In this document: piece by piece, positions 9,345-26,792 of the stretch | Layout: every line of letters begins with the position of its first letter | Position numbering within the stretch: position 1 is the first letter of the stretch | Source: Clostridia bacterium | Lineage (GTDB): Bacteria; Bacillota; Clostridia; Christensenellales; Aristaeellaceae | Direction of reading: 5' to 3' | Length of the DNA stretch: 32,000 nt | Assembly (NCBI GenBank): GCA_045617125.1 | Contig: JAZLIA010000042.1 | Coordinates: 21,627-53,626, forward strand | Notes under the pieces: generated by a model | Databases searched by the model: none | Seen by the model: only the letters and a program-made list of their open reading frames with translations | Told to the model about the DNA's origin: nothing | Made by a program: the position numbers and the translations under genes

Positions 9345-9874
9345 GCTTAAAGGGAACCACGATCTGTGCGGTAAAAAAGAACGGTCAGATCGCGATTGCA
9401 GGCGACGGACAGGTCACCATGGGTGAAAATACGATTTTTAAAAGCAATGCGAGAAAGGTGCGGCGGATCTACAACGATTCTGTCGTAATCGGTTTTGCAG
9501 GAACAGTATCGGACGCTTTTGTTCTGAGTGAACGCTTTGAGGATAAGCTTTCACAGTGCGGGGGCAATCTTGAACGCGCGGCGGTGATGCTTGCTCACGA
9601 TTGGCGTGGAGATCACGGAATGCGCCAGCTTGAAGCAATGATGATCGTTGCGGATAAGACCGGGATGTATATCGTTTCAGGAACCGGTGAAGTGATCGAT
9701 CCGGATGGGGGAATCGCGGCAATCGGAAGCGGCGGGAACTATGCGTTGGCGGCTGCAAGGGCTCTTTCTGAAAATACAGACCTGTCCGCTCATGAGATCG
9801 CGGATAAGGCGCTTCATATTGCAGCGGGAATATGTGTTTTCACAAATGACAGCATCGTTGTGGAGGATGTTTGA
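9341..9874 (+). CDS. hslV: ATP-dependent protease subunit HslV (ClpQ/CodW)
   Basis: [28 protein letters not shown] matches the HslV N-terminal nucleophile hydrolase signature. [14 protein letters not shown] motif. ATGA overlap with the trmFO stop. Confidence 0.93.
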
Positions 9875-9876
9875 GC

Positions 9877-11268: not shown

Positions 11269-11297
11269 AATCGCACATGTATTTTGATCATCCATAT

Positions 11298-11347
11298 AAA
11301 AAGGTCCTCATATCAGGATGTGTTTTCCTGATATGGGAACCCTTTTC
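11298..11347. terminator. Bidirectional rho-independent terminator between convergent hslU and the SH3b gene
   Basis: The 10-bp stem catatcagga (11309-11318) pairs with tcctgatatg (11326-11335) across a 7-nt loop. It is flanked by aaaaagg upstream and ccctttt downstream, which gives a U-tract on both strands. Confidence 0.5.
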
Positions 11348-11426
11348 TTATGTGTTGTTGTTATCCATGCTGGATACGTATGGATAATATCTGTTTGGCT
11401 CTATGCATCACAGATCAGGGGCTGAT

Positions 11427-14400
11427 TTACCATTTGGCATTCAAAGCACGTTTGATCGCAGCCTGATGGTCAGGGTCTACCTTTTTACTGCCGTGAGTTT
11501 TGCTTCCCGTAAAGTGAATGCAGAAATGACCGTCAAAATTGTTGTTTTTGATCGTTGTCGTTCCATGAGGCATCGCGTTCTGACTTGCGGCATAAACATG
11601 ACCGTTATACAGCACCAGGATCGCCCTACGGCTCCAGCTCCAGCTCCCGCCGTAGATGGATTTCATGGTTGCGGTATCTTCAGCGCTAAGCGGCTCGCAA
11701 TCCATATGATTGCCTCCGCTCCAGCGTCTGCAGCGGAAGGTTCTGCCGGTCAAAACATCCTTTACTGTGAAGGTAGCGCCCTTCGGGATCTTTTCACTGC
11801 CGCCTTCAAACCAGATCAATTCTTCTGTAACGTAGGTATAATTGCGGGCATTTGTTCCGAACAGAGCTTTTATTGTGTCAAATCCGGCCTCACCGTCTGC
11901 TGTGATGCCGCGGGCTTTTTGGAAAGCAGTGACAGCGTCAAATGTGGAAGTGCCATAGATCCCGTCAATAGGCTTTTTGAAGTATCCTTTGATCTTGAGC
12001 GCCTGCTGAAGCGCTGTGACGCTTTCGCCGCTGTTGCCCTTCTTTGTTGTAGCAGGAACCTTGATCTCACTGATCTTAGTGATACCGTTCATCTTGGGAT
12101 CGTCTGCAACGGTGGTGACAGATACTTTCCCAAAGAGCTTCTTGATCGTGGCGTAGTCCGCTTTTCCAGTCAAAGGAAGGCCGTTGGCTTTCTGATAAGC
12201 GTTGACCGCTTCTTTGGTGCTGTTTCCAAATTTTCCGTCCACTGTTGAGGTGAATTTTCCTTTCAGCTTCAATGCCTGCTGCAGCTTTTCAACATCCTCT
12301 CCGGTAGATCCCATACTAAGATACCCGGGAGCTTCACCAAGTGCTGCAATGCTGGTCGCATTGGCATATTTACTGTTGGAAGGCTTGGGAGTAGGGGAGG
12401 GAGTGGATGAAACCAGCTTCATGTAGCTCGAGGATACATATCCGATTTTACCGCCTGACTTTATCTTATAGAACCCATTTTGACTTGCCTGAACCTGAAC
12501 ACAGGTGTCCTTACAGAGCTCCAATAGAATTTTGCTATCCGTGGCAGGCTGTTCACGCATATTTACAAGGGATGCAGTAACGATCCCATAGCAATTGAGA
12601 ACAATGGGTTTTTCGGTGGGCTTGGGGGTGGAAGTTGGTTTCGGAGTGGAAGGTTTGCTTGTGGTTGCAGAATCTACTTTTGTTATGTAAGTTTTGGAAA
12701 CATATCCGGTTCTGCTGTTGTACCTGATCTGATAGAATGAACCGATCGTGCCAGTAAGCTGAACAACCGTTCCACCGGGGATGACGGAAAGAATGTCGCT
12801 GTTGGTATTTGCTTTGGCACGGAAATTCAATGTGGAGGAATTGACTTTTCCATATCCGGTCATCGGGATAATTTTATCGCTGGGTGTTTGTGTTGCTTTC
12901 GTCTTGGGGGTCGCAGTAGGAGTTGATACGGGCTTCTTTGTGGTTGAAGAAGCTTTGCTCAGATAGGTTTTGTGAATAAAACCGGTTTTTCCGTTGTATT
13001 TTACCCGGTAGAAAGATTCAGTGTTTCCAGTGATTTCGACTACAGTACCCAAAGGAAGTGAAAGGAGGATTCTGCTATCGGTACTTGCTTTTTCACGAAC
13101 ATTTACAGATGAAGCGGTAACGGTACCGTAACCGGACAGTGAAGTAACAGTTGCGGAACTGGAAGGGGGATTCGTCTGCTTTTGAGACGGTGTCGCTGTT
13201 GGCGACGAAATCTGAGTCATATAAAGCTTGGATACAAATCCCGTATTTCCACTATAATTGATCCTGTAGAACGAATCTGTCATTCCTGTAATCTCTGTTA
13301 CGGTATTGAGAAGAAGAGAGGTGATGATCTCACTGTCGGTGTTTGCATATTTACGCATATTGACGCTGGATGCGGTCACCTTTCCCCATGCGTTGAGCGG
13401 TGTTACAGTGGTATCCATTTTTGATGCAGAGGAAGCGGTATCCAGAATATGAATGTAATTCTGCATCACGTATCCGAAAGAGGAACCTAAGCGGATACGG
13501 TAGAAATCACTGATTTCTCCTGTGATGCTGACGGTGTCCCCGGCATAAAGCTTGCCGATCAGTTCCGAAGAAGTCGAGGGCAACTGACGCACATTCAATT
13601 CTGAAGAACTGACCGTGCCGGTTTTGTTGATGCTCTTTACTTCCGGCTGTGTGGCTGCCTTTTCAGGCACCAAGGTCGGTGCTGATGCGGATGCGTCAAG
13701 GATACGTACAAACTCTTTGGCTATATAACCCGGGGTATTGTTGATTCTGATATAGTAAAAGGCACCGGATTCACCCAGAATTTCCACTCTGTCGCCGATG
13801 CTCAGTGAGCCGATCACGTCTGAGTCTGTGCTGGGTTGAGAGCGGACATTCAGTTGAGAACTGGTCACCTGCCCTTTCTTTGCTGTAATTGTTTTTGACT
13901 GATTTAGCGGCTGCGAAGCAATAGGGGCAGAAATGTCCGGTGCTGTAAGCGTGATAAAATCAATAGATACATAAGCCTGGCTGTTATCACACGCAATACG
14001 GTAGAAACCGTTGATCCTTCCGCTGATTTTTACCTCTGTGTTCCGTGAGAGCTGCTTGATGATATCTGATGCGGCATCGGCACCACTGCGTACGTTAACA
14101 GTGGATGAGGTCACATAACCGACCGTATTGATATTGGTGATCAATAGTGCTTCCTGTCCTTCATGAAGAACAGTGAGACGCACATAGTCGGAAAGAATCC
14201 ATCCGGCAGTATCACGGACTTTTACATGGTAAAAGCCGTTTTGCTCGCCGGTGATAATGACGCATTCTTCTTTCACCGTGCTCATGATTATACTGTATTC
14301 CGTTCCGGGGCCGGATCTTACATTTACATTATCATTTGTGATCACACCAATTTTGCTAAGCGGATCAATGGTGGAAAAGTCAAGCTGAACACAGTCCTCC

Positions 14401-14648
14401 GAAATAAAAACGGTTTTTCCGTTAAGGCTTGTTTTATAGAAGCCGTTTTCGTAGCCTGTGATCTTGAAATCGGTACCGTACACAAAAACAGATACGACAG
14501 CGGAATCGAGATTTGCTTCCGATCGTACGTTTACTGTTCCAACATTGACAGATCCATGGATCTCTTCAGCCAGAGAAGGAGTAAAGGAGATGAGGGAGAA
14601 AACCATCACGACCAGAACTCCTGCAGCTAAGAAACGATGCTTTATCAT
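11427..14648 (-). CDS. Secreted cell-wall-binding protein: signal peptide, 9 SH3b repeats, 2 PG_binding_1 domains and a C-terminal domain of about 138 aa (possible divergent YkuD-like L,D-transpeptidase fold)
   Basis: GGAGG RBS 7 nt upstream. Signal peptide MIKHRFLAAGVLVVMVFSLISFTPSLAEE. Nine repeats share the pattern G-V-x3-LNVR-x-P-x-DS-x-I-x10-G-x4-FY-I-x6-GYV. Two PG_binding_1 units (GSTGEDVEKLQQALKLKG..DGKFG, GNSGESVTALQQALKIKG..DGIYG). C-terminal motif PHGTTTIKNNNFDGHFCIHF. Confidence 0.8.
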   Translation of the reverse strand: MIKHRFLAAGVLVVMVFSLISFTPSLAEEIHGSVNVGTVNVRSEANLDSAVVSVFVYGTDFKITGYENGFYKTSLNGKTVFISEDCVQLDFSTIDPLSKIGVITNDNVNVRSGPGTEYSIIMSTVKEECVIITGEQNGFYHVKVRDTAGWILSDYVRLTVLHEGQEALLITNINTVGYVTSSTVNVRSGADAASDIIKQLSRNTEVKISGRINGFYRIACDNSQAYVSIDFITLTAPDISAPIASQPLNQSKTITAKKGQVTSSQLNVRSQPSTDSDVIGSLSIGDRVEILGESGAFYYIRINNTPGYIAKEFVRILDASASAPTLVPEKAATQPEVKSINKTGTVSSSELNVRQLPSTSSELIGKLYAGDTVSITGEISDFYRIRLGSSFGYVMQNYIHILDTASSASKMDTTVTPLNAWGKVTASSVNMRKYANTDSEIITSLLLNTVTEITGMTDSFYRINYSGNTGFVSKLYMTQISSPTATPSQKQTNPPSSSATVTSLSGYGTVTASSVNVREKASTDSRILLSLPLGTVVEITGNTESFYRVKYNGKTGFIHKTYLSKASSTTKKPVSTPTATPKTKATQTPSDKIIPMTGYGKVNSSTLNFRAKANTNSDILSVIPGGTVVQLTGTIGSFYQIRYNSRTGYVSKTYITKVDSATTSKPSTPKPTSTPKPTEKPIVLNCYGIVTASLVNMREQPATDSKILLELCKDTCVQVQASQNGFYKIKSGGKIGYVSSSYMKLVSSTPSPTPKPSNSKYANATSIAALGEAPGYLSMGSTGEDVEKLQQALKLKGKFTSTVDGKFGNSTKEAVNAYQKANGLPLTGKADYATIKKLFGKVSVTTVADDPKMNGITKISEIKVPATTKKGNSGESVTALQQALKIKGYFKKPIDGIYGTSTFDAVTAFQKARGITADGEAGFDTIKALFGTNARNYTYVTEELIWFEGGSEKIPKGATFTVKDVLTGRTFRCRRWSGGNHMDCEPLSAEDTATMKSIYGGSWSWSRRAILVLYNGHVYAASQNAMPHGTTTIKNNNFDGHFCIHFTGSKTHGSKKVDPDHQAAIKRALNAKW
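12411..14558 (-). repeat. Protein-level tandem array of nine SH3b (bacterial SH3) domains, aa 31-746 of the 11427-14648 product
   Basis: The repeats were counted by eye in the translation. Repeats 6-8 are the most similar to each other. Repeats 5/6 to 9 are separated by Pro/Thr/Ser/Lys-rich linkers. At the nucleotide level the repeats are diverged and I saw no long exact repeats. Confidence 0.8.
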
Positions 14649-14937: not shown

Positions 14938-16611
14938 ATGATGAAAAGAACAGTTTGCTTTCTGGTAATGCTGACGGTTCTGTTTACAGCGGTCGGCTTT
15001 GCTCATGCGGAAGCACAGCCCCAGATGCTGACGGATGAAAATGATGTGTATCTTGGTTTTGTCGAATGCAAGGGGAATCAGTTGAGTGTTTCATTCAACG
15101 AAAGCGCAGAAAACAGTTATGAATGGAAAACACCGGACGATCAGGAACTGCTTTCTCTTACCGATGAAAGCGTGATCGAAGCGAGCGAATACGAAAAGAT
15201 GCTGGGTCTGCCGGGAAAGCGTGTTTTTACATTCAATACGGTTAAGCCTGGGCGCGGAATGCTTACATTTTGGTTTGCGTCATACTGGATGCATGGGGAA
15301 AATGCCGTATATGCGGTGAACATCCTTTACAGTGTGGAAAACGACATGTCCATTTCTGTGGCAGGGGCATTTTCCGCGCATGATGAGCCGATTCCGGATA
15401 CGATCGAAGAACAGATGTTTTCCGATCCCCAGTATGGTTCTATCACGTTTAAGAAATCCCTTTATCAGATTTATGTCGGCAGATCCACAACAGTGGCTGT
15501 GAATGCAAGCAGCCGGGATGTGTCTAAAAAGGGTTACACCTTCGAAAGCAGTGATACCAGCGTTGCCACTGTAAACAGTGAAGGCAGTGTGAAGGGCGTT
15601 TCTCAGGGTATGTGTACGATTTTGGTGCGCAGCAAAAATGACGACCGTGTATGGGCCCGGTTCCCTGTACAGGTGATGGTGAAGGTGACCAAGGTGACCG
15701 TTTCCGCAGAAAACACCACGCTTACAGTCGGAAGCCAGGTGCATCTGAAAGCGGAGTTTGAACCTGTCAATGCAGATAACAAGGAGCTCACCTGGAGATC
15801 CAGCGATAAATCCATTGCGACGGTGGATGAAAACGGTATCGTGACTGCAGTCGGAAAAGGTGAAGTGACTATCACGGCTGTGTCCAAGGATGTGGACGAA
15901 AAGTCCGGCAGGGTGAAGCTGACTGTGACGCAGTCCGTTTCCGGTGTGACGGTAGATAAGCAGTTTGTCCGGGTAGGGGTGCGCTATACAACAGACGTAA
16001 CTGCTACGATTCTGCCCAAGAATGCCAATAATAAAAACATGACCTGGTACAGCAGCGATGAATCGGTGGCCACAGTTTCCGGAAAGAGAAATGAATGCAC
16101 TGTGAAAGGCGTGAAGTGGGGCCAGGCAACAATTACCGGCGTGACGGAGGACGGTGGATATTCCGTCAGCTTTACTGCTCTGGTAGGAAGTCTGAACCGT
16201 GCTGTTCGCATTACCGATGAGAGGATCACAGCCTACGGCCAGCCGGTGTTTACTCTGGTGAATGACAGCAATATGAATATTTCCAGCGTGCATGTTTCGA
16301 TTCGGGGTTATGATTATTACGGTAATCCTGTGCAGCTCAGCTATGGGCAGGATCCTTATACTTTGACGGGAGATTACAACTTCAATATTGCCCCCGGTGC
16401 TTTAGTAAGCAGTTATGATATGCAGTACCGTTATCTGATCGGTTGGAACGGAGTAAGCTATATCGAAGCTGCAATAACCGGATGGGAATGTGATGAAGGC
16501 TATCTGACCACCAAGGGCGAGATCAGCAATCATTATGGGCTGGGAGATTCTACCATGATCTGGGTGAATATGGGCACGATGCTTCCTACCAATGCCCCAC
16601 AGGGAGAGTAA
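14938..16611 (+). CDS. Secreted protein: signal peptide, chagasin-like (inhibitor I42-like) domain, three Big_2 Ig-like domains, and an unassigned C-terminal domain of about 140 aa
   Basis: Signal peptide MMKRTVCFLVMLTVLFTAVGFAHAEA. aa 34-135 carry SYEWKTP, GLPGKRVFTFNTVKPGRGMLTFWF and ASYWM, which resemble the three chagasin-family loops in degenerate form. The Big_2 signatures are SSDTSVATVNSEGSVKGVSQGMCTILV, SSDKSIATVDENGIVTAVGKGEVTITAV and SSDESVATVSGKRNECTVKGVKWGQATITG. Confidence 0.7.
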   Translation: MMKRTVCFLVMLTVLFTAVGFAHAEAQPQMLTDENDVYLGFVECKGNQLSVSFNESAENSYEWKTPDDQELLSLTDESVIEASEYEKMLGLPGKRVFTFNTVKPGRGMLTFWFASYWMHGENAVYAVNILYSVENDMSISVAGAFSAHDEPIPDTIEEQMFSDPQYGSITFKKSLYQIYVGRSTTVAVNASSRDVSKKGYTFESSDTSVATVNSEGSVKGVSQGMCTILVRSKNDDRVWARFPVQVMVKVTKVTVSAENTTLTVGSQVHLKAEFEPVNADNKELTWRSSDKSIATVDENGIVTAVGKGEVTITAVSKDVDEKSGRVKLTVTQSVSGVTVDKQFVRVGVRYTTDVTATILPKNANNKNMTWYSSDESVATVSGKRNECTVKGVKWGQATITGVTEDGGYSVSFTALVGSLNRAVRITDERITAYGQPVFTLVNDSNMNISSVHVSIRGYDYYGNPVQLSYGQDPYTLTGDYNFNIAPGALVSSYDMQYRYLIGWNGVSYIEAAITGWECDEGYLTTKGEISNHYGLGDSTMIWVNMGTMLPTNAPQGE

Positions 16612-17341: not shown

Positions 17342-17370
17342 TTGACTATAAGCGCAGAAAGGCATATAAT
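17342..17370 (+). promoter_or_regulatory. Near-consensus sigma-A-type promoter for the cotH-like gene
   Basis: TTGACT (17342-17347), a 17-nt spacer, then TATAAT (17365-17370). It lies about 47 nt upstream of the ATG at 17417. Confidence 0.55.
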
Positions 17371-17416
17371 AACCGCGTCAGTATGACATTTGTCCCGAAA
17401 AGAGAAGGAGCTTGAA

Positions 17417-20400
17417 ATGAGCAGAAGATCCTCAGGTCGTTCTTCCGTAGGATCCAGGTCCTTGGTCAGCAAAACGGCTGCCCTTGTGTTTTTTGCAGCA
17501 GCATTGCTGGCGATGATCCTGATCATGCCAAAGGAACCGATCCCCGTTGCGTCAAACGCGGCAGGAGATGGAGAGGGAACACACCGCGGGCTGCATCTTA
17601 CGGAGATCATGACAGATAATAAGAGCGCATTTCCGGATGAGAATGGCAGGTTTGGTGATTGGGTTGAGATAAGCAATCTTTCTGAAGTAACAATGAACCT
17701 GAAAAATGTGGGGCTTTCCAACCGTTCAGATCGTTTTGCTTTCATTTTCCCGGATATGGAATTGGCCCCCGGAGAAAGAGTGTTGGTGTTTTGTGATAAA
17801 ACCAATCAGAATGAAGCAGGAGAAGCGCTTCATGCCAAATTCGGTTTGAGCAGTCTGGGATGCACGGTGTTCCTTTTTGACGCAAACGGTGTGGAAATCG
17901 AGTATGTGACCGTTCCGACCCTGAACGTGGATGAAAGCTACATCCTTAATGAGGAAGGCGGCTGGGAAGTGACTTCGGATTATTCCCCTGGCTTTGAAAA
18001 CACCTTTGACGGCTATTCTGCTTTCCTGAATCATTATACGATCTCCCCGGATACGCTGATGATCAATGAGATCATGGCGGCGCCGAGGACCGGCTTGAGG
18101 GATGAAGACGGTGAGCTTTCCGACTGGGTCGAGATCCGGAATATGACAGGTGAAACTGTCAGCCTGAAAAATGTGTGTTTGAGCGATGACCCGAAGAAGC
18201 CGACCAAATGGATTTTCCCGGAGGATGCGATCATCACGCCCTATGGATATTATCTGGTTTTCTGCAGCGGCAAAAATAAGATCGAAGCGCAAACCAACTA
18301 TCCCCATACCAGTTTCAGTCTTTCTGCTGAAGGGGAGACGGTGCTTCTTTCAACGGTGACCGGGGAACAGCTTGACAGGGTCACCTATGAAACTCTTCCC
18401 AAGGATATGAGCTATGGAAGGGATTATAACGCGCCATACAACTGGCAGGTGTTCACGATGGCGACTCCCACTGTGGATAACAATTCAGCTGGATTTGCTC
18501 AGGCGGATCAGTATATGCGCATGCTGAATGCGACTGGGGTTTATATTTCGGAAGTGATGTCCTCCGCAGATCAGGTAGCAGCGATCAGCGGGACCGAGCC
18601 GGGGGATTTTGTTGAGATCTGCAACACGGGTGAAAACGTGGTGGATCTTTCCGGATGGGGACTGAGCGACAACATCAACTGGCCGCGTAAATGGCAGTTT
18701 CCTCATGGCAGTGCGATATGGCCCGGAGAGTATAAGGTGATTCGACTGGATAAGAGTACTTCTTCGGGAACGGATGCTTCCCAGCTACGCGCATCGTTTT
18801 CACTTGCCCGATCCGGCGGCGAAATGATGACATTATCCGACCCTGATGGTACTGTGCTGGACAGGATCTATATTCCGGATCTTCCCACGGATGTATCTTA
18901 CGGCCGCACCTGGGGAGCTTCGGGTTTTTTTTACTATTCGGTTCCCACCCCGGGTAAAAGCAATTCAGATGGCTTTGTAGGTTATGCAGAGAAGCCTTCC
19001 TTCACCGTTCCCGGAGGAGTATATGTTGAGGGGATCACAGTGGGGGTGAATGTTCCGGAGGGAACGGAAGTCCGCTATACTCTGGACGGAAGCGAGCCGA
19101 CGATCGATAACAGCCAGGTATACGATGGAGCATTTTATATCACGACTCCCTGTGTGATCCGTATCCGTTCTTTCAGGAGCGGGTTACAGCCCAGTGAAAC
19201 GGTGACGGCAAGCTATATACTGAATCAGTATTTTACCGTGCGCGTTGTATCACTGGTGGTTGACCCGGATGACCTTTGGAATGAAAGTACCGGCATGCTT
19301 GCGGAGGGACCGAACGCTGTGAAGGAGCCTGGAAAGCTCCCCTTCAAGAACACGGTATACCGCCAGTATGGAAAGATCCCCAGAAAGGGCCATGTGGAGG
19401 TGTTTGATCACGAACCGGGCAGCACGGCGCTGATCAGTCAGGGGGTCAAGGTGGCCCTGATGGGGGATTACAGTCTGGATATGCCTCAGAAGTCCATGAA
19501 GCTGAGAGCGCAGGCTTCGGACGGCGGAAAATACTTTGATTATCCGCTGTTTGAGAACAGTGTGACCCCCAGAAGTTTCACCTATTATAAGTCCTTCACG
19601 CTCCGAAACAGCGGTAATGACTGTGTGTGGACCCGCCTGATCGACGGCTTTGAGACGACTCTGGTGGAAAGGTATGTGGATACTGATATTATCACCCTTG
19701 CGTGGGAACCATGCGTGGTATACATCAACGGCATCTACTGGGGTCATTTCAATATGCGGGAAAGAAAGGATCGTTTCTGTATCGCACAGCATGAAGGCTT
19801 TGATCTTGAACGATCTGACGAGATCAACATCCTGCGTGCCAATGGCACCTCTGTTCAGGGAAGCAATGCTGAATGGAAGAGCATCGTAGCCCGGCTGAAG
19901 ACCTCCTCTCCGGCTGTTAATGCGGAAGACAGAAAGTTCCTGGATGATAATATCGATATAGACAGTTATCTTGACTGGTTTACGATAGAAATGTATTTTG
20001 GAAATTCTGACCCCGGCAATATTATGTTTTACCGCCTCCCGGGAGAGGAAAACAAATGGAAATGCCTTCTGTTTGACCTGGACTATGGTATGTTTAACAG
20101 TCAATTTGACAGTCCCACCTCCTATACCAAGCCCAAAGGCATGGGTCAGAAACTGATCAACAACACGATTTTCATGAAGATCCTGGAGGTGCCGGAATAC
20201 TTCGAGCTTTTCTGCACCAAGATCGGGAATATGTACAGGAACCTGACGGTCGAGAATATGACGAACACGCTGAATGAACTGACCGCCATGCTTGAACCTG
20301 AAATGGAGATGCATTTCAAACGCTGGGCGGGCGATCCTACCACAAAGCTGGTCAACAGTGATTCTCCAAACTCAGCGGAAGGCTTGCTCCGATACTGGAA

Positions 20401-20542
20401 TACCCGTATCTCACGTGCAAGGAATGTGATCAATAAGCGGCCCTATTATATCTACAAGCTGTTCCAGGATCATTTCAAGCTCAGCAATGCTGAAATGGAA
20501 CGTTATTTCGGCGGTCCCTGTCCGCCCGTTCCGGCAGATTGA
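17417..20542 (+). CDS. Membrane-anchored CotH-family atypical kinase-like protein with three lamin-tail (LTD) domains and a CHB_HEX_C-like domain
   Basis: GAAGGAG RBS (17404-17410) 6 nt before the ATG at 17417. N-terminal basic stretch followed by the TM segment AALVFFAAALLAMILIM. LTD signatures: LHLTEIM..GDWVEISN, LMINEIM..SDWVEIRN, VYISEVM..GDFVEICN (about nt 17591-18949). FTVPGGVYVEG..VRYTLDGSEPT is a chitobiase C-terminal-like domain (about 18998-19219). CotH region about 19238-20480 (KSMKLRA, FTLRNSGNDCVWTR, VVYINGIYWGHFNMRER). Confidence 0.85.
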   Translation: MSRRSSGRSSVGSRSLVSKTAALVFFAAALLAMILIMPKEPIPVASNAAGDGEGTHRGLHLTEIMTDNKSAFPDENGRFGDWVEISNLSEVTMNLKNVGLSNRSDRFAFIFPDMELAPGERVLVFCDKTNQNEAGEALHAKFGLSSLGCTVFLFDANGVEIEYVTVPTLNVDESYILNEEGGWEVTSDYSPGFENTFDGYSAFLNHYTISPDTLMINEIMAAPRTGLRDEDGELSDWVEIRNMTGETVSLKNVCLSDDPKKPTKWIFPEDAIITPYGYYLVFCSGKNKIEAQTNYPHTSFSLSAEGETVLLSTVTGEQLDRVTYETLPKDMSYGRDYNAPYNWQVFTMATPTVDNNSAGFAQADQYMRMLNATGVYISEVMSSADQVAAISGTEPGDFVEICNTGENVVDLSGWGLSDNINWPRKWQFPHGSAIWPGEYKVIRLDKSTSSGTDASQLRASFSLARSGGEMMTLSDPDGTVLDRIYIPDLPTDVSYGRTWGASGFFYYSVPTPGKSNSDGFVGYAEKPSFTVPGGVYVEGITVGVNVPEGTEVRYTLDGSEPTIDNSQVYDGAFYITTPCVIRIRSFRSGLQPSETVTASYILNQYFTVRVVSLVVDPDDLWNESTGMLAEGPNAVKEPGKLPFKNTVYRQYGKIPRKGHVEVFDHEPGSTALISQGVKVALMGDYSLDMPQKSMKLRAQASDGGKYFDYPLFENSVTPRSFTYYKSFTLRNSGNDCVWTRLIDGFETTLVERYVDTDIITLAWEPCVVYINGIYWGHFNMRERKDRFCIAQHEGFDLERSDEINILRANGTSVQGSNAEWKSIVARLKTSSPAVNAEDRKFLDDNIDIDSYLDWFTIEMYFGNSDPGNIMFYRLPGEENKWKCLLFDLDYGMFNSQFDSPTSYTKPKGMGQKLINNTIFMKILEVPEYFELFCTKIGNMYRNLTVENMTNTLNELTAMLEPEMEMHFKRWAGDPTTKLVNSDSPNSAEGLLRYWNTRISRARNVINKRPYYIYKLFQDHFKLSNAEMERYFGGPCPPVPAD

Positions 20543-20545
20543 CCC

Positions 20546-20574
20546 TTTTCATGGTAATAATGGTATGATATAAT
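20546..20574 (+). promoter_or_regulatory. Candidate extended -10 promoter for the DUF4956/VTC genes
   Basis: TGaTATAAT at 20566-20574 with -35 TTTTCA (20546-20551) at 17-nt spacing. It sits in the 62-nt gap after the cotH-like stop. Confidence 0.4.
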
Positions 20575-20604
20575 CAATAAGTATTGTGTATGGAGGAAAA
20601 AGAG

Positions 20605-21333
20605 ATGAATGAATTGATCGAAATGATCCTTGGAAGCGGAGCGTCAGGAGGGGGAAACAGTGTGGTGAATAATTCCACGATATCTGACTGGTTTGCCGGA
20701 CAGCTTGCTAATTTTACCCCCTTGAACGTGGCCTTGGTGCTTTTGTTTGGCTTGATTACCGGCGTCGTTATTTCTTTTGTGTATAAAAAGACCTATCGCG
20801 GCGTTCTCTACAGTCCCTCCTTCTCGCTTACTCTGATTATGCTGACCGTTGTGACTGCCCCTGTCGTAATGGCCATTGGCAGCAATGTGGCGCTTTCTAT
20901 GGGTATGGTCGGCGCTTTGTCCATCGTGCGTTTCAGAACTGCGATCAAGGATCCTCTGGATACTGCTTATATGTTCTGGGCGATCACGATGGGAATTTTA
21001 CTGGGTGCAAAACAGTATATCATTTCTCTTGTTGTTGTGGTCGGGATCAGCATCATTCTGCTGGTGCTGTCTTATGTCAAATTTTCCAATCCCAGCAGTT
21101 ATCTGCTGGTGCTTCATTATGACGATGCCGCTTTCCAGGATATTGAGTCCGAACTTCGTCATGCGGTCAGCTTCTACCGTCTGCGTTCCAAGACCATGAG
21201 CCGCAACGGCGTCGAGATGACCGTGGAGGTGCGTCTTGATCAGCACAGCAGTGATATCGTGTCTAACATGCTTGCAATTGAAGGCGTTCATGATGCTACG
21301 CTGGTGGCCTGCCAGTCTGAAACGGGAGCGTAA
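20605..21333 (+). CDS. DUF4956-family polytopic membrane protein (about 5 TM) with a C-terminal alpha/beta domain of about 85 aa
   Basis: GGAGG RBS (20592-20596) 8 nt before the ATG at 20605. The motif GALSIVRFRTAIKDPLDTAYMFWAI is what I recognise as characteristic of DUF4956. Several hydrophobic helices. The C-terminal segment YLLVLHYDD..VEMTVEVRLD..AIEGVHDATLV suggests an ACT-like beta-alpha-beta-beta-alpha-beta pattern (inference). Confidence 0.75.
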   Translation: MNELIEMILGSGASGGGNSVVNNSTISDWFAGQLANFTPLNVALVLLFGLITGVVISFVYKKTYRGVLYSPSFSLTLIMLTVVTAPVVMAIGSNVALSMGMVGALSIVRFRTAIKDPLDTAYMFWAITMGILLGAKQYIISLVVVVGISIILLVLSYVKFSNPSSYLLVLHYDDAAFQDIESELRHAVSFYRLRSKTMSRNGVEMTVEVRLDQHSSDIVSNMLAIEGVHDATLVACQSETGA

Positions 21334-21335
21334 AC

Positions 21336-22040
21336 ATGGCTTTACCGCTGAGGCACGAAAATAAGTATTATATCAGTGAGCTTCAGTATCAGGTGCTCAG
21401 AAGGGCTTTGAACGGAGCTTTGCAGCTGGATCCTCACTGTGTAAAGAACGGCGGGCAGTATCACATCCGTTCTTTGTATTTTGATACGGTATTTGATGAT
21501 GCGCTCTATGATAAGATCAACGGAGTGAAAGAACGCGATAAATATCGGATGCGGATCTATAATTATTCCGACCGGGAAATTTTCATGGAATGTAAAACCA
21601 AAATGGGCAGTTTTATCTCCAAGCGTTCTGTGAAGATCCCAAGAGATCTGGCGGATCAGCTGATAGCAGCCGATCCGGCAGGGCTGGAAAACACCTCATC
21701 CGGTCTGCTCCGGGATGTATACCGCGAAATGAGAACCCGGCTGCTTCATCCGGTCGTGATCGTCGATTATCTAAGAGAAGCCTATCTTCACCCTGCGGAA
21801 GAAGTGCGTATCACGTTTGATATGAACCTGAGGACAGGGCTCAACAGCATTGACATTTTTGACCCAACGATCCCAACGATCCCTCCCCTTGACCATGGCG
21901 AGATCATTCTGGAAATAAAATACAACCGTGTTCTGCCGCCTTACATTGCGGCGCTGATCTCTTCTTCCTGCCCGGAGCCCGTGCAGACTGCTGTGAGCAA
22001 GTACTGCCTGTGCAGACGTTTTGAAGAAAAGGAGTTCTGA
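21336..22040 (+). CDS. VTC-domain protein (CYTH/triphosphate-tunnel fold, polyphosphate-polymerase-like)
   Basis: It starts 2 nt after the DUF4956 stop. It has the alternating charged/hydrophobic strand motifs typical of tunnel enzymes and bacterial VTC-domain proteins: RHENKYYI, IRSLYFDT, KYRMRIY, MECKTK, RITFDMNL, LEIKY. It has no TM segment. Confidence 0.78.
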   Translation: MALPLRHENKYYISELQYQVLRRALNGALQLDPHCVKNGGQYHIRSLYFDTVFDDALYDKINGVKERDKYRMRIYNYSDREIFMECKTKMGSFISKRSVKIPRDLADQLIAADPAGLENTSSGLLRDVYREMRTRLLHPVVIVDYLREAYLHPAEEVRITFDMNLRTGLNSIDIFDPTIPTIPPLDHGEIILEIKYNRVLPPYIAALISSSCPEPVQTAVSKYCLCRRFEEKEF

Positions 22041-22065: not shown

Positions 22066-22746
22066 ATGCCATTTTCTATAGCGATGGACGGGCCGGTCGG
22101 GGCCGGAAAATCATCGGTAGCCGATGCGGTAGCAAGGGAACTGGGTATCATTCATCTTGATACGGGTGCGATGTATCGAGCTATTGGTCTTTATACGCTT
22201 GAAAACAACATTGATCCGGATGATGAAAAAGCGGTAAGCGACCTGTGCGAAAATGGGAGCATCCGTGTGGATGTTCGATATGAAAACGGGAAACAGTGCA
22301 CTTTGCTTTGCGGTAAGGATGTAACGGGTTTAGTACGGGAGCAGAAGGTAGGAGATGCGGCAAGCAAGGTGTCGCGGTATGCCAAAGTACGTAAGCTGAT
22401 GGTAATGAGCCAGCAGGAGATCGCTAAAAAGCAGAGCATTTTGATCGACGGAAGAGATATCTGCTCTGTTGTTCTTCCGGATGCGACTGTAAAGATCTAT
22501 CTTACTGCTTCAGCTGAAAAAAGGGCTGAAAGAAGAAGACTGCAGCTTCTTGAAAAGGGACAGGATATTCCCTTTGATGAGATCCTGAAGGAAGTGAACG
22601 ACCGCGATTGGCAGGATATGCACCGCGAAGTAACTCCGCTCAGAATTGCTGAAGATGCAGTGATTGTTGATACCAGTGATTGTGATTTTGAAACATCGGT
22701 CCAACGTATCGTGGATCTTGTGAAAGGTGTTGAAGAGAATGCCTGA
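22066..22746 (+). CDS. cmk: Cytidylate kinase
   Basis: AAGGAGA RBS. P-loop IAMDGPVGAGKSS. LDTGAMYRA motif. Conserved position upstream of rpsA. Confidence 0.93.
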   Translation: MPFSIAMDGPVGAGKSSVADAVARELGIIHLDTGAMYRAIGLYTLENNIDPDDEKAVSDLCENGSIRVDVRYENGKQCTLLCGKDVTGLVREQKVGDAASKVSRYAKVRKLMVMSQQEIAKKQSILIDGRDICSVVLPDATVKIYLTASAEKRAERRRLQLLEKGQDIPFDEILKEVNDRDWQDMHREVTPLRIAEDAVIVDTSDCDFETSVQRIVDLVKGVEENA

Positions 22747-23380
22747 AGAAAGCAATGCGGTTTTGACTGCTAAAAAGAAAAACCATTATTACCGTGCTGT
22801 AGCATTTGCCGGCAGGATTGTTTTTAGTACTTTGATACCGATCCGGTATATCGGACTTGAAAATGTATGTGAGGACGGTCCTTTCATTTTGATCAGCAAT
22901 CATCTCACCGCACTGGATCCTGTGGCGATCGCATGCAAATTGAAAAAGTGTGAAATCGTTTTCCTCGGGAAAAAGGAGATTACAAAAGGAAGGGTTGGCA
23001 AATGGTTTACTGACAAGATGAAAATGATTTCCGTGGAAAGGCATGGAACCGACCTTGCCGCCATGCGCAGCTGTATGAGCGTGATTAAGAAACAGGGCGT
23101 ACTGGGAATTTTTCCTGAGGGGACCCGGCACCATGATGGGGTCATGGAGCATATTGAGTCCGGTACCGCTATGATAGCGCTCAGAAGCAAAGCGCGGATC
23201 CAGCCGGTACTGATCAACGGCAAATTGCGTCCGTTCAGGAAAAATACGGTTATCTATGGAAAACCGATGGAGGTTGGTGACCTTTACGAAGAAGGGCTTG
23301 ACAATGAGGTGGCAACGAAGCTGGATGAACGTATCCGCAGCACCTACAGAGAAATGCTGAAGGATACCGAAAAAATTTAA
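22739..23380 (+). CDS. plsC: 1-acyl-sn-glycerol-3-phosphate acyltransferase (lysophospholipid acyltransferase family)
   Basis: HX4D motif NHLTALD and the FPEGTR motif. I chose the ATG at 22739, which overlaps the cmk 3' end by 8 nt. The track start is a GTG at 22727. Confidence 0.85.
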   Translation: MPEESNAVLTAKKKNHYYRAVAFAGRIVFSTLIPIRYIGLENVCEDGPFILISNHLTALDPVAIACKLKKCEIVFLGKKEITKGRVGKWFTDKMKMISVERHGTDLAAMRSCMSVIKKQGVLGIFPEGTRHHDGVMEHIESGTAMIALRSKARIQPVLINGKLRPFRKNTVIYGKPMEVGDLYEEGLDNEVATKLDERIRSTYREMLKDTEKI

Positions 23381-23459
23381 AAAAAATAAAAACTTTTGCA
23401 GGGAAAACGGGAATGATGTCGAATAGAAGAATATCAGCCCTTTCCGGAATGTGATTATT

Positions 23460-25499
23460 ATGGCTGCAAAAATCGTTATTGCAAAGCATGCCGGGTTTTG
23501 TAACGGTGTAAGAAGAGCAATGGATCTGGCTGTTACAGCTGCAGAGAAGGCCAGGGAAGAGGGTAAGCCGATCTGTGCTCTGGGAGAGATCATTCACAAT
23601 GGAGAGGCTCTTCGGAAATTAAGTGACTGCGGAATCCGTACTGTAAACAGTGTGGATGAAGTGGAAAGCGGATATCTGATTATCCGTAGTCACGGTGAAC
23701 CGCCGAAGACTTACAGAAAATGTGAAGAAAAAGGACTGAACGTGGTGGACTGCACATGTCCTTCTGTTGCAAGACTGCATATTCTTGCACGGGAACATAC
23801 GGAGAAGGGCAAGGATGTGATCCTGGTCGGCGATAAAGGTCATCCGGAAGTGATCGCCACAATGGGATGGTGCAGGGAAGGAAGATGTCATCTTGTATCT
23901 GATGAAACAGATGCAGAAATGATAGGCAGCATTCCTGGTGTCCTTGCGCTCAGCCAGACGACTTTTTCCCTTGAGAAATGGAAAAAGATTGTTGATATCT
24001 TATTAAGAAATAATCCAGATCTGCAGATCATGAAAACGATCTGCAATGCCACTGAGCAAAGACAGAGCGAAGCGATCGGCCTGGCTGACAGGAGCGATGT
24101 TATCGTAGTAGTCGGCGGGAAGCAGAGCGCTAACACACAAAAGCTTTATACCCTGTGCAGCGAGCATTGTGAAGAGACCTATTTGGTGGAACGTGCGGCG
24201 GAATTACCGTCACACTGGAATAGACCCCACATCAAACAAATCGGAATAGCCGCCGGCGCATCAACACCGGATTGGTCACTTAAGGAGGTTTACACACACA
24301 TGAACGACATGGAAGAAAAGCGGACTCAGAAAGTGAAGGAGGAAATTTCGGAGCAGGAGCCCGAGCTCACCGAGGAAGAACTGCGCAATCGTTCCTTTAT
24401 GGAAGATGTTGAGAAGAGCATGGTTCGCATTCATAACGGACAGACTCTGACCGGCACTGTCGTGCAGATCACCGAGGATGCGGTATTTGTCAATATCGGT
24501 TATAAAGCCGATGGCCTGATCAAGAGTGAAGATTTGGTTGACAAGGATGCCAAGGTTGGCGATGAGATCGAAGTAGAAGTCGTCAAAGTAAACGATGGCG
24601 AAGGTAATGTTCTTTTGTCTCAGCGCAATATCATCAATCGCAAGGTGTGGGATGACCTCATGGCCAAGTTCCAGGCCGGCGAGTACATTGAAGCGGTCGG
24701 TAAAGAAGCGGTCAAGGGCGGCCTGATCGCGACTGTGGGCGGTGTACGCTGCTTCGTACCTGCTTCCCGCCTTTCTCAGCGTTATGTTGAGAAGATCGAT
24801 CAGTTTGTGGGCAAGGATCTTCGCTTGAAGATCATCGATGTGGATGAGAAAAAGAAGCGTATCGTTGCCAGCCGTAAGGATGTTATTCAGGAAGAATCCG
24901 CTGCCAAGAAGGCTGTTGCCTGGGAGAAGCTCGAAGAAGGTGCTGTTGTTACCGGTATCGTGCGTCGCTTTGCAAGCTTTGGCGCCTTTGTTGATCTGGG
25001 CGGTGTGGACGGACTGATCCATGTGACCGATCTTGCATGGCATCGTGTGAACGATCCCGCTGAAGTGCTGACGATCAACCAGGAAGTGCAGGTCAAGGTG
25101 CTTGGTCTGGATCGTGAACGTGAGCGTATCCAGCTCGGCTATAAGCAGCTGCAGAACAAACCCTGGGACAACATTGAGGAAAAGTATCCCGTAGGTACGA
25201 TTCTTGAACGCACTGTTGTACGCATTCGTGCTTTTGGTGCTTTCGTGGAACTGGAACCCGGTGTGGATGGACTTGTGCATATCAGCCAGTGCGCCGTGAA
25301 CCGGATCGAGAAGGTGGAAGACGTTCTTACTCCGGGACAGACCGTCATGGTGAAGGTGCTCGCTGTGGATCCCGAAGCAAAGCGTATCACGCTGTCTATC
25401 CGTGAAGCTCTGGCGGATCAGGGTGCTCCCGAAGAAGCAATTGATACTGCGATCCCGGGCGAAGAAACCGAAGCCAACGGCGAAGAGAGCGCCGAATAA
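23460..25499 (+). CDS. ispH: Bifunctional 4-hydroxy-3-methylbut-2-enyl diphosphate reductase (IspH) / 30S ribosomal protein S1 fusion
   Basis: The IspH half carries the three cluster cysteines in context: HAGFCNGV, VDCTCPSV, TICNATEQRQ. The S1 half starts at about aa 284 and has four S1 (OB) repeats (GTVVQIT.., VGKEAVKGGL.., GIVRRFASFGAFVDL.., RTVVRIRAFGAFVEL..). The start is ambiguous between GTG 23451 and ATG 23460. Confidence 0.9.
   Translation: MAAKIVIAKHAGFCNGVRRAMDLAVTAAEKAREEGKPICALGEIIHNGEALRKLSDCGIRTVNSVDEVESGYLIIRSHGEPPKTYRKCEEKGLNVVDCTCPSVARLHILAREHTEKGKDVILVGDKGHPEVIATMGWCREGRCHLVSDETDAEMIGSIPGVLALSQTTFSLEKWKKIVDILLRNNPDLQIMKTICNATEQRQSEAIGLADRSDVIVVVGGKQSANTQKLYTLCSEHCEETYLVERAAELPSHWNRPHIKQIGIAAGASTPDWSLKEVYTHMNDMEEKRTQKVKEEISEQEPELTEEELRNRSFMEDVEKSMVRIHNGQTLTGTVVQITEDAVFVNIGYKADGLIKSEDLVDKDAKVGDEIEVEVVKVNDGEGNVLLSQRNIINRKVWDDLMAKFQAGEYIEAVGKEAVKGGLIATVGGVRCFVPASRLSQRYVEKIDQFVGKDLRLKIIDVDEKKKRIVASRKDVIQEESAAKKAVAWEKLEEGAVVTGIVRRFASFGAFVDLGGVDGLIHVTDLAWHRVNDPAEVLTINQEVQVKVLGLDRERERIQLGYKQLQNKPWDNIEEKYPVGTILERTVVRIRAFGAFVELEPGVDGLVHISQCAVNRIEKVEDVLTPGQTVMVKVLAVDPEAKRITLSIREALADQGAPEEAIDTAIPGEETEANGEESAE
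24282..24302 (+). promoter_or_regulatory. Internal Shine-Dalgarno plus in-frame ATG at the IspH/S1 domain junction
   Basis: AAGGAGG (24282-24288), an 11-nt gap, then ATG (24300). The ATG is in frame because (24300-23451) is divisible by 3. It sits exactly where IspH homology ends and the acidic S1 N-terminal leader begins. Confidence 0.35.
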
Positions 25500-25510
25500 T
25501 CGATGATTCA

Positions 25511-25539
25511 GCCGCCTGATAAAACCAGGCGGCTTTTTT
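25511..25539 (+). terminator. Rho-independent terminator after ispH/rpsA
   Basis: gccgcctg (25511-25518) pairs with caggcggc (25526-25533) across a 7-nt loop, followed by TTTTTT (25534-25539). Confidence 0.75.
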
Positions 25540-25556: not shown

Positions 25557-26792
25557 ATGAATGTTATGAAAAAATGGAGTTGTTTCTTTGCTTTGGCAGT
25601 GATATTTGCACTGTTTTGTTTGGGCAGCGTCATGGCGGAGGAGGCCAGAGATATAACCGCGGAATGTAAAGTTACTGCAACAGCAGGAAAATTCAAGATC
25701 ACCCGGGTTTATGACCGTGACCTTACGACCTATTGGACAAGTTCAAAGGAAAAAGTCAGCTACATTCAAATGACGGCGCCAAAGGGAAAAATGCTGTGGC
25801 ATCTTTATGTATGCTTCTGGGATGAACTGGATGCGTGGCGTATTCAGGTGCTGCAAAACGGAAACTGGGTGGATTATGAAGAGCATTCCGCACGTTATGC
25901 GCATGAGTACATTTATCTGGGCGGTGTTGAAGGCGTGCGAGTGTGTTCAAGAAGCGATAAAAGAGCCGTACTCAGCGTGAATGAGATCTATGCATTTTCT
26001 GAAGGAGATGTGCCGGAATGGGTGCAAAGATGGAGCGATCCGCCGAAAAAAGTCGATATGATGCTTCTTTCAGCGCATCCGGATGATGAGATTCTGTTTT
26101 TCGGGGGCACGCTTCCCCGTTATGCCGGCGAGGAAAATAAGGATATTCTGGTTGCCTATATGACATGTGGAACCTATGCAAGACGAAGTGAGCTGCTCAA
26201 TGGGCTCTGGACCTGTGGGGTACGCATTTATCCTTCCATAGGAACTTTCTGGGATAAGTATTCCAAGAAACTGGATACAGCCTATGATGCATGGGGAAAA
26301 ACCAAGACATGGACTTACGTGACCGAGCTTATCAGAAAATATAAGCCGGATATCCTGCTTACCCATGATGTGAACGGAGAGTATGGTCATGGTGCACATC
26401 GTGTATGTGCGGATGCCGCACTGCGATGTGTAACTTATGCCGCTGATAATGGGAAGTATCCTGACTCTGCAGAAAAGTATGGAAGCTGGCAGGTGAAGAA
26501 GCTGTATATTCATCTTTATGAGCAGGGAAAGATCGATATGGATTGGGATATTCCGCTGAGTGCCTTTGACGGCCTTACCGGCTATCAGGTGGCAGTGAAC
26601 GCCTATAAAGAGCATGTGACACAGCAAAGTGCCGGGCAAAAGAACCCTGCGACCGGTAAATATGAACCTTTCATTGTGGAACCTGCCGAATCTGATTACA
26701 GCTGCTATCAATTTGGTCTAGCCTATACCGCAGTGGGCGAGGATGTGCTGAAGAACGATTTTTTTGAGAATATCGACAATGAAGCGAGATAA
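25557..26792 (+). CDS. Exported PIG-L/LmbE-family deacetylase with an N-terminal discoidin-like (F5/8 type C-like) domain
   Basis: Signal peptide or anchor MNVMKKWSCFFALAVIFALFCLGSVMA. aa 30-150 form a beta-rich domain with TTYWTS..YIQM.., WRIQV, and a NEIYAF ending. PIG-L zinc motif LLSAHPDDEILFFGG (AHPDDE at nt 26073-26090) and a downstream GHGAH. An alternative start is the ATG at 25566. Confidence 0.8.
   Translation: MNVMKKWSCFFALAVIFALFCLGSVMAEEARDITAECKVTATAGKFKITRVYDRDLTTYWTSSKEKVSYIQMTAPKGKMLWHLYVCFWDELDAWRIQVLQNGNWVDYEEHSARYAHEYIYLGGVEGVRVCSRSDKRAVLSVNEIYAFSEGDVPEWVQRWSDPPKKVDMMLLSAHPDDEILFFGGTLPRYAGEENKDILVAYMTCGTYARRSELLNGLWTCGVRIYPSIGTFWDKYSKKLDTAYDAWGKTKTWTYVTELIRKYKPDILLTHDVNGEYGHGAHRVCADAALRCVTYAADNGKYPDSAEKYGSWQVKKLYIHLYEQGKIDMDWDIPLSAFDGLTGYQVAVNAYKEHVTQQSAGQKNPATGKYEPFIVEPAESDYSCYQFGLAYTAVGEDVLKNDFFENIDNEAR

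Follow-up and report, generated by a model that had tools for sequence, protein, structure and literature searches.

Bacterial kinases that act outside the cytoplasm pose a question of energy supply, and a locus of a Clostridia bacterium (GTDB family Aristaeellaceae) raises it in concrete form. We analysed a window of 32,000 nucleotides (nt) from its genome (contig JAZLIA010000042.1 of GenBank assembly GCA_045617125.1, forward-strand positions 21,627 to 53,626). According to the open reading frame (ORF) map and Pfam scans, three adjacent genes on the plus strand, at window positions 17417-22040, encode a CotH-family kinase (gene 1), then a DUF4956 membrane protein (gene 2), then a VTC-domain protein (gene 3). 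What do these three products do together? An earlier note, made from the sequence alone, had proposed that they deliver polyphosphate (polyP) or another phospho-donor across the membrane to a surface kinase. Its domain calls (three LTD domains, CHB_HEX_C and CotH; DUF4956; VTC) are upheld by the Pfam scans, positions included. The data given below also bear out what it had said of a kinase predicted to lie outside the membrane, of a tunnel fold in gene 3, of about five transmembrane (TM) helices and an ACT-like C-terminal domain in gene 2 (from a model of moderate confidence), and of a 2-nt spacing between genes 2 and 3. Among the conditions that it had named as able to refute it, the tunnel fold with conserved basic residues, the external CotH and the co-occurrence of the three families, which is far above background, all turn out in its favour.

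The evidence that the three genes belong together is comparative. Relatives of the VTC gene were scanned at one genome per species, giving 80 loci (80-41% identity), mostly from uncultured Clostridia and Christensenellales of gut and rumen, together with Bacillaceae, Paenibacillus and others; the neighbours of VTC were found by iterative hidden Markov model searches. DUF4956 adjoins VTC in 78/80 loci, the remaining two contigs stopping just past VTC, and CotH adjoins the VTC-DUF4956 pair in 64/80. The genes of the trio are co-oriented in all loci, with CotH-DUF4956-VTC, CotH-VTC-DUF4956 and VTC-DUF4956-CotH as the main orders. Between VTC and DUF4956 the median gap is 18 nt, with 9 overlaps, and 16 CotH junctions have a gap of zero or less. 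When a CotH neighbour is granted an assumed and generous chance of 2% per locus, the binomial tail for the observed CotH adjacency is ~4e-93. Furthermore, no other gene family is common to more than 9 of the 80 loci, and the flanks vary even among close relatives. From one genomic context to another, the three genes travel as a unit. A conserved fourth cassette gene was considered and rejected: the only recurring neighbour, an LTD-only protein of ~373 residues, is present in 9 of the 80 loci and absent at this locus. Where the pair occurs without CotH, it is in some cases next to another large carbohydrate or surface protein, which hints that the pair can serve partners besides CotH. Such neighbours are a 1200-residue protein containing GH130, a beta-helix protein of the Cthe_2159 type, a protein with DUF3131 and a 2310-residue Cna_B/FctA adhesin (L080 10555-14157; L066 7470-9458; L059 4730-7846; L027 2186-9118).

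The linkage extends to distant homologues as well, the trio being present in 7/7 look-ups at 35-38% identity. In a spore-former (L083/L084, 3209-4974), genes for an extracytoplasmic function (ECF) sigma factor and its anti-sigma factor (zf-HC2, DUF4349) lie directly 5' of the trio, beside the spoIIIA operon; in some lineages, such a pair may serve to regulate the cassette specifically in response to envelope stress. One distant trio lies within a rhamnose/GT2/acyltransferase cluster that has a second CotH gene, and one adjoins an epimerase and a GT87 gene. Two more (L087 and L090, ~8000-14500) are in operons with a BcsA-like PilZ cellulose synthase and a GH5 cellulase, and another (L089, 6624-12784) is flanked by a chitin-synthase-like GT2 on one side and a polysaccharide deacetylase on the other. 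Given these cellulose-type and chitin-synthase-type operons, the link to synthase-type exopolysaccharide systems reaches well past Pel. At the remaining locus (L088, 7884-13029), VTC and DUF4956 are accompanied by a hypothetical gene and a gene for a 919-residue CotH-beta-helix protein, in a context of Gram-negative type (ZapD, type IV pilus PilB/C/D, pilins); hence the cassette is not confined to Firmicutes. Finally, two plasmids carry the trio, one in an exopolysaccharide cluster and the other in a NELoc-2-type operon.

Part of this arrangement has been described before. Whitfield et al. 2020 reported that in streptococci, clostridia and bifidobacteria pel operons are followed by cotH, a 'poly-phosphate polymerase' (PPP) and DUF4956, in some cases along with DUF4832. 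In S. intermedius each gene of the trio (SIR_1594, SIR_1593 and SIR_1592) has since been deleted: loss of DUF4956 or of CotH lowers aggregation in artificial sputum medium by more than 50%, with Pel levels shifted in opposite directions, while the VTC deletion, unlike that of either partner, has no reported aggregation defect (mBio 2025). The authors of that study did not find the trio outside pel loci and favour a role in cytoplasmic polyP and phosphate metabolism (mBio 2025). Our data contradict a restriction to pel. Iterative searches with Pel proteins detect pel genes in only 3/80 loci, all from Bacillaceae (Cytobacillus, Lysinibacillus), and 77/80 are pel-free; in the window itself, PelG, PelF (DUF3492) and DUF2194 were found neither by Pfam in the main ORFs (at least 120 residues) nor by the iterative Pel searches. 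The clade to which this window belongs has the cassette by itself, with no dedicated polysaccharide synthase nearby. The trio is a known one, and the present locus represents a form of it that is independent of pel and has an LTD-rich CotH. The earlier note had held that the module has no established function. This stands insofar as no biochemical characterisation was found in the searchable literature, but the trio had already been reported in 2020 and deleted in S. intermedius in 2025.

What gene 3 encodes can be stated with some precision. It matches the VTC model (PF09359) with 137.7 bits against a cut-off of 23 (E 5.9e-40), residues 6-226 covering model positions 2-230 of 235. It has no TM or hydrophobic segment and no Pfam domain besides VTC, so neither SPX nor CHAD. 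AlphaFold, given 33 diverse homologues, models it confidently as a beta-tunnel of eight strands (predicted local distance difference test, pLDDT, 93.4; predicted TM-score, pTM, 0.89). The top 12 Foldseek matches are all VTC-complex entries, namely Vtc4 crystals and chains of the VTC complex from cryo-electron microscopy (best E 3.5e-13, TM-score 0.75), the best-matching PDB entries being yeast Vtc4 3g3r, 3g3q, 5iiq and 8i6v; Vtc2, YgiF, AtTTM3, adenylyl cyclases and thiamine triphosphatase are also significant but rank after Vtc4. At the sequence level, the bacterial VTC family profile matches Vtc4 at E 2e-11, and 4981 homologue representatives are found at E up to 1e-3, eukaryotic VTC proteins included.

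The conserved residues of gene 3 point the same way. E8, K10, S46, Y48, D50, K69, R71, R73, E85 and K87 are invariant in the VTC family, as are K96, Y145, R147, R158, T160, D162, E193, K195 and K222, and the i, i+2, i+4 spacing of these columns on the strands is the pattern expected of residues that line a tunnel. Seven of them (K10, R71, R73, K87, Y145, R147 and E193, invariant in the 33 homologues) align with Vtc4 K200, R264, R266, K281, Y359, R361 and E426, which bind triphosphate or Mn2+ and are required for polyP synthesis. Vtc4 K458 is the residue that sets active Vtc4 apart from inactive Vtc2 and Vtc3; at the position of Vtc4 S457-K458, just past the matching 'EPV', gene 3 has S221 (at least 90% conserved) and the invariant K222, in an SK[YF] motif. 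Strand 1 reads R-H-E8-x-K10 in gene 3, with the Glu invariant in the bacterial family, whereas Vtc4 has R-Q-T-T-K, with Thr at the Glu position. Gene 3 thus encodes a cytoplasmic triphosphate-tunnel enzyme, closest by sequence and structure to the catalytic domain of yeast Vtc4. Elsewhere in the family, many VTC homologues of 360-620 residues (e.g. P0131, P0133, P0134, P0154 and P0165) carry low-complexity N-terminal extensions of 140-400 residues, rich in Lys and Arg and with no Pfam domain; the start M-x-RRDDDIFKKL is partly conserved between P0131 and P0133. Tracts of such basic character could be binding sites for polyP or a different polyanion. DUF4956-VTC fusion proteins were also considered and rejected, the long VTC N-termini being these Lys/Arg-rich extensions and none of the ~90 related loci showing a fusion.

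Gene 1, in turn, scores 95.8 bits against the CotH model PF08757 (cut-off 23.8) and retains the conserved CotH residues K692, E782, N863/D865 (in GNSDPGN) and D887/D889 (in FDLDYG). A profile made from 27 CotH homologues retrieves B. cereus CotH (structure 5jd9) with E 5.3e-25; in this comparison N863/D865 and D887/D889, near-invariant in the 27 homologues, align with NFD and WDYD of B. cereus CotH. The B. subtilis CotH mutants D228Q and D251A are inactive, and we infer a residue numbering by which D228 and D251 would correspond to the NxD and DxD motifs of gene 1. Since GNSDPGN and FDLDYG align with the B. cereus CotH motifs to which the inactive mutants would map, the kinase looks catalytically competent by its motifs. 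Besides the kinase, the predicted exported part of the protein comprises Ig-like and carbohydrate-associated domains.

The hydrophobic segment near the N-terminus of gene 1 follows a basic tail and, by the positive-inside rule, is therefore predicted to be a signal-anchor, with the other ~1000 residues of the protein outside the membrane. Full-length CotH homologues adjoining VTC genes share this layout, 58/58 having an anchor or signal at the N-terminus. Moreover, homologues from Bacillaceae and Paenibacillus carry the lipoboxes LSGC, ISGC and VGC, which provide independent evidence for CotH export. A twin-arginine translocation (Tat) signal was rejected by inspection, the RR lying 15 residues from the hydrophobic core, with no consensus. 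Several other features of these N-termini were observed. The tail of gene 1 (17417-17473, MSRRSSGRSSVGSRSLVSK) resembles the serine-rich basic repeats phosphorylated by Bacillus CotH, and the Pfam scans of window ORFs show no cotG or cotB context in the window. The tails of many CotH homologues are more basic than a signal-anchor requires, with up to ~20 Lys or Arg, though the ORF start is possibly over-extended there. In close relatives of gene 1, a PKxP motif stands just past the TM helix.

Gene 2 matches DUF4956 (PF16316) with 45.5 bits against a cut-off of 30.6 (E 9e-12), as do all 36/36 aligned homologues. The AlphaFold model shows five TM helices followed by a C-terminal beta-alpha-beta-beta-alpha-beta domain; it was built on database homologues of lower diversity, and its quality is probably limited. 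Because the N-terminus is acidic, the helices number five and the loops are basic, the N-terminus is predicted to lie outside and the C-terminal 85 residues in the cytoplasm. An invariant motif, GMVGALSIvRfRtaiKdplD (G100-D119, including R109, R111 and K115), is found at the predicted cytoplasmic end of TM3, and may be a candidate phosphate-binding or docking site. For the C-terminal domain alone, the fold neighbours that come out best, weakly, are the MgtC C-domains 7qa5 and 2lqj (E ~5e-3), then NikR and ACT, with NapD-like domains as well. MgtC models are matched below threshold (20.3 bits against 31.4 for Pfam PF02308, 18.7 against 214 for NCBIfam), and sub-threshold Pfam matches to MgtC recur in 17/36 DUF4956 proteins. 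The earlier note had proposed that DUF4956 and VTC form a synthase/translocase; the analysis lends no support to a translocase role of DUF4956, whose detectable relatives are solely MgtC-family proteins and ACT/NapD-like domains.

How might three such proteins work together? In the mechanism that we propose, the VTC enzyme would dock on DUF4956 on the cytoplasmic side of the membrane and make polyP from ATP. The polyP, or its phosphoryl groups, would then become available on the outer face through coupling to DUF4956, and CotH, acting where ATP is scarce, would draw on this supply to phosphorylate a surface substrate that its LTD and CHB_HEX_C domains may bind. The likeliest substrate would be an exopolysaccharide, or else a polymer or protein associated with the wall; we propose it in view of the frequent linkage of the trio to loci for polysaccharide synthases. 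A membrane-linked product, or membrane-linked regulation, is suggested because a soluble polymerase otherwise has no obvious need of a membrane partner. Furthermore, coupling of synthesis to translocation is attractive because eukaryotic VTC couples synthesis to membrane transit, and polyP is attractive as a donor because an exported kinase lacks a ready ATP supply. PolyP export with supply of a phospho-donor is a reasonable hypothesis, although the use of polyP by CotH is pure conjecture on our part, and the mechanism in full is one that we hold only tentatively, as possible. The more sweeping claim, that VTC-DUF4956 is a bacterial counterpart of the eukaryotic VTC synthase-translocase with another membrane partner, that it feeds polyP across the cytoplasmic membrane and that polyP serves as an extracellular substitute for ATP for exported CotH kinases phosphorylating exopolysaccharides or the wall, is rather doubtful.

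Several observations weigh against the proposed mechanism. Profile and fold searches show no likeness of DUF4956 to Vtc1, channels or transporters, the model of this protein has moderate confidence (pLDDT 67.6), and MgtC has been described as a regulator rather than a transporter. The phosphate donor of CotH is taken to be ATP. Characterised CotH phosphorylates proteins. On the side of the polymerase, the equivalence of K222 and Vtc4 K458 rests on motif and position, a C-terminal mini-profile alignment having given a spurious match only. ExExK is the motif of hydrolytic tunnel enzymes, and the invariant Glu of strand 1 is half of it, so a different reaction is possible for bacterial VTC. No enzymology or biochemistry of any bacterial VTC-trio member was found in the searchable literature, and the silent VTC deletion in S. 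intermedius disfavours a strict linear pathway under those conditions. Finally, at least 7 loci carry a VTC-DUF4956 pair with no CotH within 10 kb. In a rival explanation, the polyP made by VTC would stay in the cytoplasm, DUF4956 would be an MgtC-like, membrane-bound regulator of phosphate and energy homeostasis, and CotH would be co-regulated yet chemically independent, using released ATP or acting on protein substrates. This explanation agrees with the likeness of DUF4956 to MgtC and not to a transporter, with the preference of the S. intermedius study authors, with a VTC deletion phenotype unlike that of the partners and with the existence of pairs without CotH. It leaves unexplained, however, why an exported kinase adjoins the pair in 64/80 loci, with 16 CotH junctions at a gap of zero or less and in both Firmicutes and a Gram-negative lineage, and why a soluble polymerase keeps a dedicated membrane partner (78/80); in addition, PPK enzymes already supply cytoplasmic polyP in most bacteria. 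We consider it somewhat unlikely.

Three further explanations were considered. PolyP could be exported as an anionic component of the matrix or capsule, a partner of cationic or neutral exopolysaccharides, which the LTD-CotH protein would bind, trim or attach covalently to wall or glycan, instead of drawing on it as a donor in classical phosphorylation of proteins. The trio does lie repeatedly by synthase-type polysaccharide loci, including ones with deacetylases, which make cationic polymers; the CotH tails and some VTC N-terminal extensions are very basic, suggesting polyanion binding; and the eukaryotic complex couples synthesis to membrane transit. Yet the basic tails are on the cytoplasmic side, the catalytic motifs of CotH are those of a phosphotransferase and the DUF4956 searches gave no channel likeness, which makes a secreted polymer quite unlikely. 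Very unlikely, in our view, is a different chemistry, with the VTC protein acting as a triphosphatase, polyphosphatase or nucleotide cyclase whose product or substrate is sensed by the ACT-like domain of DUF4956, the two forming a signalling pair in control of the surface kinase. Ligand sensing is typical of ACT domains, tunnel enzymes are diverse in activity (the significant matches of the fold search include YgiF, AtTTM3, adenylyl cyclases and thiamine triphosphatase), and the invariant strand-1 Glu is missing in Vtc4; on the other hand, Vtc4 comes out ahead of the other tunnel enzymes whether sequence or fold is searched, the Vtc4 triphosphate-binding set appears complete, including the Lys lost in Vtc2 and Vtc3 (given the S221-K222 equivalence from motif and position), and CHAD is absent, as is any other domain characteristic of the tunnel hydrolases of bacteria. 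That the genes are adjacent by accident, with three unrelated functions, has next to no probability: the trio here does sit amid housekeeping genes, with possible read-through into cmk, but its linkage is kept in 80 + 7 loci, with variable flanks, three orders and always the same strand, and the comparative data, with the binomial tail given above, effectively refute it.

Comparison with the closest known systems places the locus further. The pel accessory set has the same three families, contiguous and co-oriented, with a predicted secreted CotH, a cytoplasmic tunnel enzyme and a TM plus ACT protein. It adjoins pelD, pelE, pelA(DA), pelF and pelG, whereas this locus is pel-free; its streptococcal CotH is ~570 residues long with FN3, against ~1040 here with three LTD domains and CHB_HEX_C; and some sets include a DUF4832 hydrolase, of which there is none here, where the order is CotH-DUF4956-VTC. 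The eukaryotic VTC complex (Vtc4/Vtc3 or Vtc2/Vtc1) shares with our trio the catalytic tunnel fold, the triphosphate-binding residues and an obligatory membrane component. Its subunits, however, carry SPX and a C-terminal 3-TM domain, neither of which is present in gene 3; its membrane domain is of the 3-TM Vtc1 type, where the partner here is an unrelated 5-TM MgtC-like protein; strand 1 of Vtc4 has Thr in place of Glu; and it couples synthesis to membrane transit, where translocation by the bacterial trio is a proposal. MgtC/SapB proteins have five TM helices and, after them, a small ACT-like domain in the cytoplasm, a layout that the pLDDT 67.6 model predicts for DUF4956 as well, but gene 2 scores under both MgtC cut-offs and DUF4956 has its own invariant motif.

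The CotH of Bacillus (5jd9, 5jda) has the same kinase domain with its catalytic Asp motifs. It is not known to have a signal sequence; it is a single domain of ~360 residues that acts on CotB/CotG in sporulation. In gene 1, by contrast, an anchor holds the kinase on the outside, LTD and CHB_HEX_C domains are part of the same chain, and VTC and DUF4956 are linked to it. In the C. perfringens pathogenicity locus NELoc-2, VTC genes occur together with CotH and membrane proteins (PMC2879425). NELoc-2 shares the VTC, DUF4956 and CotH core with this locus, as does a Planococcus plasmid operon, the layout in both being VTC, membrane protein, CotH, a hypothetical protein, a HEAT-repeat protein and a chitin-synthase-like GT2, with or without a deacetylase. 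These loci have their own GT2 synthase, HEAT-repeat protein and sigma/anti-sigma genes, none of which lies within 10-17 kb here.

The features of the locus are collected in Table 1. The promoter-like site at 17342-17370 accounts for the start coordinate of the region in the earlier note. Gene 1 has a GAAGGAG ribosome-binding site upstream, and its start agrees with the gene call in public records; a GGAGG ribosome-binding site lies 5' of gene 2. The TAA stop of gene 2 (21331-21333) and the ATG of gene 3 (21336) are separated by 2 nt, and the ribosome-binding site of gene 3 is located within gene 2. No terminator-like site was found between gene 3 and cmk, so read-through transcription into cmk is possible; the first convincing terminator 3' of the trio is at 25510-25534, after the ispH-S1 fusion, with a 9-bp stem (7 GC pairs) followed by a T-run. 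This cmk-side context is common to just 1/80 related loci, the 80%-identical one. An Rfam scan of the entire window showed no riboswitch or other RNA element, and an anti-phage defence system was rejected, PADLOC giving no match.

Table 1. Features of the CotH-DUF4956-VTC locus (window coordinates)
Feature	Position	Strand	Basis or remark
Candidate sigma-70-type promoter	17342..17370	+	TTGACT-17 nt-TATAAT, 11/12 matches, near-consensus; 47 nt 5' of gene 1
Gene 1, 1041-residue anchored multidomain CotH-family kinase	17417..20542	+	ORF map, Pfam
N-terminal hydrophobic segment, residues 20-38	17474..17530	+	Single TM segment, after Ser/Arg-rich tail MSRRSSGRSSVGSRSLVSK
LTD (lamin-tail, Ig-like) domain 1, residues 58-166	17588..17914	+	Pfam, E 1.8e-11
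LTD domain 2, residues 211-325	18047..18391	+	Pfam, E 2e-13
LTD domain 3, residues 373-485	18533..18871	+	Pfam, E 3.9e-17
CHB_HEX_C_1 / Fn3_assoc domain, residues 532-600	19010..19216	+	Pfam
CotH kinase domain, residues 683-1009	19463..20443	+	Pfam PF08757, E 4.8e-27
Possible internal promoter, extended -10 (TGATATAAT)	20546..20574	+	Consensus match only; within 62-nt gap 5' of gene 2
Gene 2, 242-residue DUF4956 membrane protein, MgtC-like	20605..21333	+	Pfam
Five predicted TM helices, residues 39-159	20719..21081	+	AlphaFold model, hydrophobicity
C-terminal beta-alpha-beta-beta-alpha-beta domain (ACT/MgtC-C-like), predicted cytoplasmic	21097..21312	+	AlphaFold model, Foldseek
Gene 3, 234-residue soluble VTC-domain (triphosphate-tunnel) protein	21336..22040	+	Pfam, fold model
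Downstream context: cmk, acyltransferase, ispH-S1 fusion	22066..25534	+	Pfam, terminator scan

Other genes of the window were noted as well. The fusion that ends at the terminator is one 682-residue ORF (23451-25499, plus strand) of IspH/LytB and four S1 RNA-binding domains, ispH-rpsA-like in its make-up. Directly 3' of the terminator, a plus-strand gene (25557-26792) encodes a signal-peptide protein with a PIG-L-type de-N-acetylase domain and an N-terminal domain without assignment; a link to surface glycan modification is possible. Upstream of the trio, a 1073-residue secreted protein (11427-14648, minus strand) combines nine bacterial SH3 repeats with two PG_binding_1 domains and a C-terminal region of ~190 residues without assignment, and is probably a cell-wall-binding enzyme. 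It is followed by a gene (14938-16611, plus strand) for a secreted protein with a chagasin-like peptidase-inhibitor I42 domain and three Big_2 domains. At the start of the window (6-3179, plus strand) is a gene for a 1057-residue membrane protein with PMT/GT39-like glycosyltransferase domains in its C-terminal 440 residues and no Pfam match in the N-terminal ~600.

Taken together, the comparative data correct the published view of the trio as restricted to pel. VTC-type polymerases are listed as eukaryote-only, and recent work on polyP enzymes still gives VTC4 as eukaryotic, although thousands of bacterial homologue clusters exist; the cassette offers an experimental route into bacterial polyP synthesis of the VTC type and into the energy source of phosphorylation outside the cell. 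To the question of how an exported kinase is supplied, a cassette of polymerase, membrane protein and kinase gives a concrete answer that can be put to the test. Since the cassette adjoins synthases of the Pel, cellulose and chitin-synthase types and sits in a pathogenicity locus of C. perfringens, gut bacteria and pathogens may owe to it a modification of their biofilm matrices that has so far escaped notice. If VTC-DUF4956 is indeed a counterpart of the eukaryotic synthase-translocase, a CotH kinase fed by polyP would be a general and portable means of energising phosphorylation outside the cell.

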